A stretch of 64,000 bases of DNA from Macrostomum lignano (GCA_002269645.1 NIVC01002565.1:62001-126000); one strand, 5' to 3'; counted from the first letter of the stretch, positions 9,782-20,400 are shown. Notes: generated by a model not told the origin, from the letters alone. Made by a program: numbers and translations.

Positions 9782-10643
9782 TGATGTGTTCCTTATTACC
9801 CGACTTTCGATAATCAAGGAACAATCACTTCTAGCTCAACAGCTAGGCAACCCAGTAAGTCAAACGAAGGTATTCAATTACCTTTAATCCGGATTTGAAT
9901 TTCTTGAGTAGTTCTCGCTAGGAACTTGTCAGTAGATCTCGTAGATCAGGCGCCTTGATTCTTCAGTTGCTCTGGTCCTGGTTCCTCTTGTACTTCCGAT
10001 AAGTTCTTCCGGCCGGTATCTTCCGTCAGGACCAATCAGAGGCCTCGTAGCAACAATGGGTACCCTGCGCCAAACTGCGGTCTAAATTAAGCCTCCTTCT
10101 TCTAGCAGTGCCTCTATGCACTCTAGGTATAGCTCCGGAAACCACTGATAGTCCTCTAAGATCTATCAGGGGCAGTCCTTCTGGAGACTGCAACCAATGG
10201 AGTCTAAACAGACTCAAGAGTCTCAACAGACTCAATTAGACTCAAGTCTCAATAGACTTGAGCGAGACGTCTCTAACACAACGGGCGCAAATAAGGAAGG
10301 CTTACCGCAACAACTCGACCGAGTCTCGATTGACTTGGTAGATCAGGAAGTCCTCCTAAGGCTTCCTCTTCGGAGCGCTCCTCTTCCGTGGGGAGAATGG
10401 CTCCGGTACCGCTTCAGATCGCTTGTATTTATAGACAAGTTTTTGATCCAAAATAGTATCATGACAATTCACGTGTTGCGCTAAAAGGGGAAAATGGCTC
10501 ATGGCGTATTATTCTGGTAACATCTTTTTCTGGTAGCGTGATTCATTCAAAGCTTAGGCGCACATGCGTGTACTTACTTACTTATAGTAGTATTATACGA
10601 TTATCTTTTTTTTCTGTTTTTGCGGGAGGCAGAACACTCTACA
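9782..10643 (-). repeat. 3' LTR (862 bp)
   Basis: Direct repeat of 19539-20400 at a constant offset of 9757. No differences seen by eye, and the ORF-track translations inside both LTRs are identical. Confidence 0.97.
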
Positions 10644-10646
10644 AAA

Positions 10647-10658
10647 TCTCCCTTTTTT
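10647..10658 (-). promoter_or_regulatory. Polypurine tract
   Basis: AAAAAAGGGAGA on the minus strand, 3 nt before the 3' LTR. Confidence 0.85.
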
Positions 10659-10773
10659 ACGAAAAAAAACTCGTCCCGAGTTTTAACAATGAAATAATAA
10701 AATTCTGTGGTGATCAGTTAATATAGGAAATAAACAATTGATTTTGTGCGCGTCTAGAGAAGCGAGGGTTTGG

Positions 10774-11207
10774 TCAAAACTCTAAAAACTTTTCAGTACA
10801 TATTGCGGTCAAAACTCGAATATCGCGTAGACATCGAGTGGCATCAGGTTTGATACGACACCACTTTCGAAACGTGCAGTCTCGCGGCATACTATTACAT
10901 AAGGGGCATCCTATAATGCCCCTACTAGCGGTTTGCTTCAAACAGTGCATGCAAATAAAATGTTGGTGGTTACAATATTGAAACGTGCGCCAAGAATAAC
11001 AATAGGCACATTGTCGCAAACTATCTCTACAGAGGGGACAATCTGCCAGGGCTGAATATAGTGTGAATCACTTAAACATTGTCCGCAAACTTTATGTCCA
11101 TTGATGCAAATAGTCGGTGGCTTGACAGCCAAGTCATCAGTTAAACATATCGGGCAGTCATATAGCTGCTGAGGCTGGGGCGCCTGTTTTGACAGTGCGT
11201 TGCCCAT
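10774..11207 (-). CDS. Accessory ORF of the LTR element: N-myristoylated tandem RING (2 x C3HC4) protein, ~144 aa after restoring one base near 11065
   Basis: Joins ORF-track 10938..11219 and 10774..11019. It starts MGNALSK, followed by CPIC-x12-C-x3-H-x2-C-x2-C-[frameshift]-CPLC and then CAYC-x8-C-x3-H-x2-C-x2-C-x11-CPLC. Confidence 0.75.
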
Positions 11208-18822: not shown

Positions 18823-19518
18823 GTTGTTGATAGGGTAGAACGGTAGTTCAAGATCTGGATCGATTTGTAACGGATCGTCCAGTGTGGTGTTTGCCTCGGA
18901 ATAAACCTCGACTGTAACGAATTGCCTTGTGGTGTCGATTTGTTATTCGCTGGCCTCGGATGCGGTGTGGCTTGCTGCCACTGGTTGTCCTCAAATGAAC
19001 TTGTTCTGTTCGCTTGCTGATTTCGCACTTATGCGGCGTCCCGCAAAGTGTATCTTCAAGTTGAAGTGGACTTGTCTTCTTGCTTTGCAAAGTCTTTCTT
19101 CTCTTCTTTGACTCTCTCTCTTTTGTCAATTAACTCTGCTCTCCACGAAGTTTCAATTAATTTCGGTTTTGTTTTAGTTTTTGTGCCGGCAAAATGTTTC
19201 AGTTATTTTTTGTTTGTTTTGCGTCGACGATTCTTTTTATTTTTGGTTTGTTTTCAGTGTACCGACGAAGTTAATTTCGGTTTTGTTTTAAACTCACACT
19301 TGCTCGAGCTCGTCAAAACAAAATTTTAACACGCGTGCTCAAACTGTACTCAAATTTGACAGGTGCTCAAACCTGTACACCAAATTTTACTCGAGTTTCA
19401 AAACGTAACGGACTTAAAAAGTGTTAACTCTAACACGTGCGCGCAAAATTAATGAAGTCGCTCTGTCGTCACTTTACAATAGCTTGGCCAGGCTATTGCT
19501 CAAGGTTTGAGTAGTGCC

Positions 19519-19536
19519 GAGAGGGCGAGATCACCA
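19519..19536 (-). promoter_or_regulatory. Primer binding site
   Basis: TGGTGATCTCGCCCTCTC begins 2 nt after the 5' LTR. TGG is complementary to tRNA CCA. The primer tRNA was not identified. Confidence 0.8.
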
Positions 19537-19538
19537 AT

Positions 19539-20400
19539 TGATGTGTTCCTTATTACCCGACTTTCGATAATCAAGGAACAATCACTTCTAGCTCAACAGC
19601 TAGGCAACCCAGTAAGTCAAACGAAGGTATTCAATTACCTTTAATCCGGATTTGAATTTCTTGAGTAGTTCTCGCTAGGAACTTGTCAGTAGATCTCGTA
19701 GATCAGGCGCCTTGATTCTTCAGTTGCTCTGGTCCTGGTTCCTCTTGTACTTCCGATAAGTTCTTCCGGCCGGTATCTTCCGTCAGGACCAATCAGAGGC
19801 CTCGTAGCAACAATGGGTACCCTGCGCCAAACTGCGGTCTAAATTAAGCCTCCTTCTTCTAGCAGTGCCTCTATGCACTCTAGGTATAGCTCCGGAAACC
19901 ACTGATAGTCCTCTAAGATCTATCAGGGGCAGTCCTTCTGGAGACTGCAACCAATGGAGTCTAAACAGACTCAAGAGTCTCAACAGACTCAATTAGACTC
20001 AAGTCTCAATAGACTTGAGCGAGACGTCTCTAACACAACGGGCGCAAATAAGGAAGGCTTACCGCAACAACTCGACCGAGTCTCGATTGACTTGGTAGAT
20101 CAGGAAGTCCTCCTAAGGCTTCCTCTTCGGAGCGCTCCTCTTCCGTGGGGAGAATGGCTCCGGTACCGCTTCAGATCGCTTGTATTTATAGACAAGTTTT
20201 TGATCCAAAATAGTATCATGACAATTCACGTGTTGCGCTAAAAGGGGAAAATGGCTCATGGCGTATTATTCTGGTAACATCTTTTTCTGGTAGCGTGATT
20301 CATTCAAAGCTTAGGCGCACATGCGTGTACTTACTTACTTATAGTAGTATTATACGATTATCTTTTTTTTCTGTTTTTGCGGGAGGCAGAACACTCTACA
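19539..20400 (-). repeat. 5' LTR (862 bp) with TATA box
   Basis: Direct repeat of 9782-10643. TATAAATA on the minus strand at 20183-20190. Confidence 0.97.

Follow-up and report, generated by a model that had tools for sequence, protein, structure and literature searches.

A recent Ty3/Gypsy insertion in Macrostomum lignano with a predicted class III envelope inside its polyprotein

A stretch of 64,000 nucleotides from Macrostomum lignano (GCA_002269645.1, NIVC01002565.1:62001-126000; hereafter the window) carries on its minus strand an element which is probably best explained as a recent germ-line insertion of a Ty3/Gypsy retrotransposon with an internal envelope (Env), of the type catalogued as Mlig_errantivirus_2, with a defective 3' end and with a mechanism in which the polymerase (Pol) would be tethered to Env. 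The element had previously been described, from the sequence alone, as a very young and structurally complete env-bearing Gypsy insertion with a RING accessory gene (the original prediction). The recent insertion of such an element is supported by long terminal repeats (LTRs) which differ at 0 of 862 positions, by a reverse transcriptase (RT) whose closest solved relative is that of Ty3, by an Env of predicted class III fold and by a matching published family with 16 copies which are >98% identical (PMC13524379, in its available parts). Structural completeness, on the other hand, does not hold for the copy as assembled, and elements of this class had already been published.

Identical terminal repeats indicate a young insertion

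Comparison of the window with itself revealed a single long and perfect repeat, whose copies at 9782-10643 and 19539-20400 are identical at 862 of 862 positions and have TG...CA ends on the minus strand. Exact alignment gives 0 mismatches, confirming what had originally been judged by eye for two LTRs of 862 bp, and the TTTG target-site duplication (TSD), primer-binding site (PBS) and polypurine tract (PPT), which had been called intact, were all located (Table 1). Given the composition of the flanks, the chance of a 4-bp TTTG duplication is ~0.006. Direct LTRs with TG...CA ends, a PBS, a PPT and a short TSD identify the insertion as a Ty3/Gypsy element, and Pfam gives the Pol domains in the order protease (PR), RT, RNase H (RH) and integrase (IN). 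The best PDB matches are 4ol8, an RT/RNase H, and 7q5b, which bears the name Ty3-G Gag-Pol, with E values of 2e-63 and 6.5e-63, ahead of retroviral RTs. A Bel/Pao assignment was rejected, as DUF1759/DUF1758 gave only weak sub-threshold matches and the 13 Pfam families with matches in the polyprotein include none specific to Pao.

From 0 differences in 862 positions, LTR divergence is below 0.35% (95% bound), which corresponds to an insertion age below ~170,000 years at a rate of 1e-8 per site per year, an assumed rather than measured rate. LTR identity shows youth, not present activity. Neither a second copy nor a solo LTR was found within the window. The only tRNAs in the window are tRNA-Ala and tRNA-Met, which gave no identification of the primer; a valine tRNA is a tentative candidate. 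The LTR lacks a canonical heat-shock element (HSE), so it shows no sign of membership in the HSE families of PMC12801592, and neither LTR end was found in five supplements of that paper, whose long cells are partial.

One long reading frame with clustered breaks at its 3' end

The original prediction of a 7.3-kb open reading frame (ORF) without stops is borne out, with 2461 open codons at 11557-18942 and a first Met at 18822. The leader preceding this Met contains no ATG (11.5 expected), and the same holds over the 1338 nt that follow the presumed start site (0 against 23 expected), while other orderings of the letters A, T and G occur 10-33 times in the same leader stretch. This absence fits scanning translation of one polyprotein.

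A search with the region returned two proteins among 2524 candidates, the gene model P0002 and P0003 (UniRef A0A0M4HFM6, Macrostomum lignano). P0003 is 99.4% identical to the polyprotein over 1387 amino acids (aa), down to 11,632; beyond it the match switches to a second frame as far as ~11,455 and then to a third, which takes it to 11,331, and P0002 shows the same two shifts. As P0003 runs through three frames, the IN C-terminus contains two frameshifts, and judged against P0003 the integrase with its C-terminal domain is interrupted. All catalytic residues checked are nevertheless present. The two breaks in IN and a third in the RING gene (see below) fall within ~570 bp, with 7.2 kb open upstream (p ~8e-4 if breaks were evenly spread over the coding sequence). 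This copy, which had been called structurally complete, thus has a 3' end that appears defective in the assembly, given the two IN frameshifts relative to P0003 and a RING gene split between frames. Upstream, the linker between Gag and Env is only 50% identical to that of the sister model P0002, compared with 96% for the capsid region and 96-99% for Env, and appears to be fast-evolving; in the relative P0004 it is much shorter and less acidic.

The breaks may represent either a patch of assembly errors or a mosaic defective copy. If the former, the copy would be intact in the animal and the locus would be a complete autonomous provirus, a reading to which we give slightly less than even weight. 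It would account for the clustering of three breaks in ~570 bp and for the ability of P0003 and P0002 to read through both IN breaks, and the M. lignano assembly of PMC12801592 is described, in the available part of that paper, as redundant and derived from a hidden allotetraploid. Nevertheless, the LTR lying ~430 bp away matches its partner perfectly over 862 bp, so the region is not generally error-prone, and substitutions relative to P0003 also cluster at the breaks (three in aa 2409-2426, against one in aa 1070-2408), which would be expected equally of a mosaic copy whose 3' segment was derived from a damaged template. Programmed frameshifts regulating the output of IN and RING protein would likewise be clustered, each with an open frame downstream, but both IN sites are passed without a shift in two independent database proteins, and no canonical slippery heptamer was seen at the sites by eye; we reject this explanation as extremely improbable.

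Three frameshifts enclosed by identical LTRs could also mean that the insertion is older than it appears, its LTRs having been homogenised by gene conversion or read polishing. We consider this very unlikely, in view of the divergence bound set by 0/862 differences, of the 99.4% identity of the internal protein to the independent record P0003, of the intact catalytic residues and TSD, and of the matching published family, whose 16 copies are >98% identical (PMC13524379, as tabulated).

A predicted class III envelope between Gag and protease

The internal Env of the original prediction is present, between the Gag zinc knuckle and PR, and has a class III fold according to the structural model. 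Its ectodomain, of 577 residues, is cysteine-rich, with six N-glycosylation sequons and 12 family-conserved cysteines, all of which are retained in at least 94% of aligned relatives. A furin-type RRRR motif (aa 988-991) lies in a low-confidence loop of the model, and the middle domain gave a Pfam match to Monjiviricetes_fusion which is below threshold (E 9e-6). The model, built with an alignment of 31 sequences that includes 30 of the 55 search hits, has a mean predicted local distance difference test (pLDDT) score of 77 and a predicted template-modelling (pTM) score of 0.51. It matches herpesvirus glycoprotein B (gB) in the PDB (E 8.5e-22, template-modelling (TM) score ~0.44) and the glycoproteins of nyami-, rhabdo-like and chu-viruses (E ~1e-24). 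On the evidence of this model, Env is a predicted class III fusogen of the gB/nyamivirus type.

Two hydrophobic segments flank the ectodomain. When the positive-inside tendency was counted across the family, segment 1 carried more positive charge on its N-terminal side in 25 of 31 proteins, and segment 2 on its C-terminal side in 27 of 33, counts which include the element's own protein and near-copies. This charge asymmetry would place Gag and Pol in the cytosol and the Env ectodomain in the lumen, and it is quite likely that a single polyprotein crosses the endoplasmic reticulum (ER) membrane twice. The arrangement is shared at least in part by relatives: among 56 of these, a CCHC knuckle precedes Env in 20, a protease motif follows it in 18 and both are found in 11, and the complete series knuckle-Env-PR-RT-RH-IN lies within one chain in 5 of 55.

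Two further observations concern Env. Of the eight positions at which the polyprotein departs from P0003 over 1387 residues, four fall together at aa 1060-1069 (~15,735-15,765, minus strand), a stretch which may be variable, may have been acquired by recombination or may reflect an oddity at the start of the P0003 record. The relative P0005 (2852 aa), with full Gag-Env-Pol, has a long Thr/Ser/Pro-rich, mucin-like insert in Env directly before the furin site, and its tail holds both PSAP and LYPxL.

Late-domain-type motifs in the Env tail

Between the Env anchor and PR lies a tail of 90 residues, 19 of which hold three motifs of the late-domain type. Retroviral late domains are located in Gag. 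As in vertebrate retroviruses, all three motif classes are represented, but here they are packed within 19 residues of the predicted cytosolic tail of Env, just upstream of PR. The classes PT/SAP, PPxY and YPXnL are those named for retroviral release in the available part of PMC3874623.

We scored the tails of related proteins for such motifs, starting from 57 proteins, 22 of which were unscorable and three of which (the element's own and two near-copies) were excluded. A late-type motif was present in 10 of the 32 scored relatives, compared with 1.72 expected from composition-preserving shuffles, and P[TS]AP alone in six, compared with 0.30 expected. Upstream linkers had such a motif in 1 of 27 cases, and 10 of 11 permuted control motifs scored 0-1. 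The bearers are scattered on an Env tree made by a quick method only (nine changes, a number equally low in 136 of 500 shuffles).

Several points weigh against a function in budding. No late motif was found in 22 of the 32 scorable tails, and the permuted control [TS]APP also scored 6/32, four of these overlapping P[TS]AP. The motif stretch is absent from the sister model P0002, although so are large portions of Env, RT and IN, and this gene model seems to have been spliced wrongly. Moreover, P[TS]AP and PPxY also serve as endosomal sorting signals in the tails of ordinary membrane proteins. We regard the chances that the tail motifs act in budding dependent on the endosomal sorting complex required for transport (ESCRT) as evenly balanced. 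Our literature search on late domains found only general retrovirus works, none of which mentions gypsy, and the main text of PMC13524379 does not contain RING, late domain, ESCRT, polyprotein, cytoplasmic or budding, although its figures and sequence files, and Sacco et al., may cover them. Late-type motifs in the Env tail and a RING accessory gene therefore appear to be undescribed in such elements.

A RING-like accessory gene, probably split between frames

Downstream of IN, a proximal coding piece starts with an ATG at 11,207 and encodes a Met-Gly start, a Ser at position 6 and six RING ligands, while a distal piece in the neighbouring frame adds another pair of cysteines and a second RING pattern, which is complete. 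The full pattern occurred in 0 of 3000 shuffles of the segment 10774-11207. Of the RING accessory gene originally proposed, the RING-like coding sequence is thus supported and its integrity is not, as it is split between two frames. We infer one double-RING gene broken near 11,070, the position of the break following from the zinc-ligand pattern only. The Met-Gly start with Ser at position 6 agrees with the myristoylation consensus, and the protein is possibly N-terminally myristoylated.

This assignment is weakened by Pfam matches of the two pieces which are below gathering scores (E 1e-4 and 0.01), by Atlas matches limited to generic C3HC4 clusters, some of them viral (0.89-0.92, with recognition scores below the reliable range), and by the finding of no RING homologue in a set of 5.8 billion proteins searched at lengths of 155-2000 aa and 53-170 aa. 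In the literature searched we found no description of RING accessory ORFs in Gypsy elements, and a paper on rotifer ORF3 (PMC5408684) has no RING. Only tentatively, then, do we suggest that the gene may encode a membrane-anchored ubiquitin ligase which aids budding or counter-defence. Arenaviruses, which are enveloped, have a small RING protein with an N-terminal myristoyl group, the Z protein. It differs in that two RING-like units are found here, with no late motif in the RING protein, and the parallel is one of analogy only, with no sequence similarity shown.

Relation to catalogued errantiviruses

With an Env between gag and pol, a predicted class III ectodomain between two hydrophobic segments and conserved cysteines, the element has the features of a GAG-ENV-POL errantivirus with an HSV/gB-type Env. 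The novelty which the original prediction implied for an internal Env is not supported, as elements of this kind have been published: errantiviruses of Nematoda, Bryozoa and Platyhelminthes have only gB-type Env and GAG-ENV-POL order (Chary and Hayashi, eLife 2026, PMC13524379, in its available parts), and GAG-ENV-POL elements are described there as non-monophyletic. The sole M. lignano family in the table of that paper, Mlig_errantivirus_2, is listed as ENV_HSV with 16 copies of >98% identity, LTRs at 0-863 and 9727-10591 and a PBS at 865-877, a 12-mer with one mismatch to the 3' end of a host tRNA and of primer class 'others'.

We assign the present element to this family with high confidence on the basis of host, PBS, lengths and Env type. 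Its LTR of 862 bp, LTR offset of 9757 and length of 10,619 compare with ~863 bp and ~10.6 kb in the table, and the PBS 12-mer, 2 nt after the LTR, is identical. Our copy differs in being ~28 bp longer and in its frameshifts at the 3' end. Against the assignment stands the nature of the comparison, which was made with the tabulated description only. The number of 16 copies may be inflated, since the assembly of this species, a hidden allotetraploid, is redundant according to the available part of PMC12801592. The main text of that paper does not contain 'env', 'envelope', 'glycoprotein' or 'RING', and no LTR or gypsy passage was found in the available part of a Macpiwi1 paper (PMC4604429). The class of the element is thus known and this family is very probably catalogued already.

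Among better-known systems, the env-bearing Ty3/Gypsy errantiviruses gypsy and ZAM of Drosophila also have LTRs, a PBS and a PPT, but their Env is of the F type and encoded by a separate third ORF after pol, unlike the class III Env found here inside the polyprotein. A 2022 study by Sacco et al. reportedly described nematode elements in which gag, env, pro and pol form a single uninterrupted ORF, with a glycoprotein resembling that of nyamiviruses and with additional small ORFs. Such GAG-ENV-POL endogenous retroviruses of nematodes resemble our element in being metaviruses whose Env lies between gag and pol, and differ in host phylum.

A possible mode of assembly and release

The features described above suggest the following sequence of events. 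A scanning ribosome would make a single polyprotein from the genomic RNA, with Gag synthesised in the cytosol. Segment 1 would then act as an internal signal by which the Env ectodomain enters the lumen of the ER, to be freed there by signal peptidase, and segment 2 would stop the transfer, leaving the tail and PR-RT-RH-IN in the cytosol, still joined to Env. Pol would accordingly reach the budding membrane as an Env-Pol rather than a Gag-Pol fusion. The tail motifs may recruit ESCRT (through TSG101, ALIX and NEDD4-type ligases), which would serve either the release of particles or vesicular sorting. Priming of Env would fall to furin, and the element's own PR would liberate the enzymes. Finally, the RING protein, as a putative membrane-anchored ubiquitin ligase, might assist budding or remove a host factor.

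It is conceivable instead that the family is an ordinary intracellular retrotransposon in which Env is only an in-frame membrane tether or a relic, and that no infectious particle leaves the cell. Errantivirus transmission outside Drosophila is described as unknown in PMC13524379 (available parts), where gB-type errantiviruses outside Drosophila come with no particle or transmission data, and none of the literature matches listed for Macrostomum virus-like particles mentions Macrostomum. An in-frame Env must, in addition, stay open for Pol to be made, whatever the use of Env. We nonetheless consider this unlikely, because the constraint on Env exceeds what an open frame needs: Env is 96-99% identical between subfamilies compared with 50% for the adjoining linker, relatives with 20-30% identity retain the cysteines, the furin site and the class III fold, and the tails of relatives show an excess of late-type motifs.

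We keep, as probable, the explanation with which we began, that of a recent insertion with an Env-tethered Pol. A much broader proposal, extrapolated from sequence features, would be that GAG-ENV-POL errantiviruses package Pol as an Env-Pol membrane fusion and carry their ESCRT late domains on the Env tail and not in Gag, unlike all studied retroviruses, and that this family, with its own myristoylated double-RING ligase, would be a 'complex' infectious Gypsy retrovirus which is still spreading; taken as a whole, we find it rather doubtful.

Table 1 Features of the element, in window coordinates and in 5' to 3' order of the element.
Feature	Position	Strand	Basis
Whole element, 10,619 bp	9782..20400	-	LTR self-comparison
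Target-site duplication TTTG, 5' LTR side	20401..20404	.	sequence
5' LTR, 862 bp, with a TATA-like box (LTR position 211) and ATTAAA (756)	19539..20400	-	sequence
Primer-binding site, PBS-type 12-mer, 2 nt after 5' LTR	19525..19536	-	sequence
Leader, 716 nt	18823..19538	-	ATG count
Polyprotein ORF from first Met, Gag-linker-Env-PR-RT-RH-IN; departs from integrase frame near 11,632	11557..18822	-	ORF and Pfam
Gag, aa 41-400, CCHC zinc knuckle at aa 276-289 (Pfam aa 276-291)	17743..18822	-	Pfam
Acidic linker between Gag and Env, aa 401-655, 29% D/E	16978..17742	-	sequence
Hydrophobic segment 1, aa 660-678, preceded by basic residues; candidate internal signal sequence	16909..16965	-	sequence
Env ectodomain, aa 679-1255, predicted class III fusogen fold	15178..16908	-	model and sequence
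Hydrophobic segment 2, aa 1256-1274, predicted Env membrane anchor	15121..15177	-	sequence
Three late-domain-type motifs (LYPx[LI], PTAP, PPxY), aa 1327-1345	14908..14964	-	sequence
Aspartic protease, DSG, D1385 (Pfam aa 1371-1461)	14560..14832	-	Pfam
Reverse transcriptase, YVDD (aa 1694-1853)	13384..13863	-	Pfam
Ty3-type RNase H (aa 1918-2050)	12793..13191	-	Pfam
Integrase (Pfam from aa 2142), HHCC and D-D35-E core (D2223, D2286, E2321) intact	11632..12519	-	Pfam and residue check
C-terminal region of integrase, out of frame; frame breaks near 11,632 and ~11,455	11331..11632	-	homologue comparison
Accessory gene with two sets of RING-like zinc ligands, probably split between two frames near 11,070	10774..11207	-	zinc-ligand pattern
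Polypurine tract, 12 purines, precedes 3' LTR	10647..10658	-	sequence
3' LTR, 0 mismatches to 5' LTR	9782..10643	-	sequence
Target-site duplication TTTG, 3' LTR side	9778..9781	.	sequence

Genomic surroundings

A host LSM-domain gene (20844-21263, plus strand; Pfam LSM, E 6e-17), which we take to be LSm7-like, has its likely start near 20,880, ~480 bp from the 5' LTR and head to head with the element, a spacing which would place the insertion within the probable upstream region of that gene. Further along are exons of a PDZ-SH3-guanylate-kinase protein (a DLG-like MAGUK; 23,083-25,565, minus strand) and, amid many minisatellite arrays, exons with MIR and RIH domains of an IP3- or ryanodine-receptor-like gene (42,455-48,957, plus strand). 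The two tRNA genes are tRNA-Ala(TGC) at 7513-7586 (plus strand), ~2.2 kb from the 3' LTR, and tRNA-Met(CAT) at 52076-52150 (plus strand).

Other repeats in the window comprise a non-LTR retrotransposon, frameshifted, in which APE endonuclease, RT and RNase H are encoded (29,100-34,420, plus strand), a decayed distant relative (4,650-7,150, minus strand; 64% over 665 bp), and a dispersed repeat of ~250-300 bp with 85-95% identity, present as five copies in both orientations (766-1056, 37816-38055, 39766-40036, 45655-45977 and 50888-51190).

Significance

The locus is not in itself a discovery, as its class, and very probably its family, have already been catalogued. According to the Discussion of PMC13524379, however, it is unknown by what routes gB-type errantiviruses get out of cells and into them, and the present element offers a handle on this question, with a young multicopy gB-type family in M. 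lignano, a genetically tractable animal. The tail motifs, enriched in distant relatives, and the RING gene lead to concrete and testable predictions about budding. If the broader proposal made above were true, an infectious Gypsy element would be spreading in a stem-cell model amenable to transgenesis, with an assembly logic unlike that of the retroviruses studied so far.

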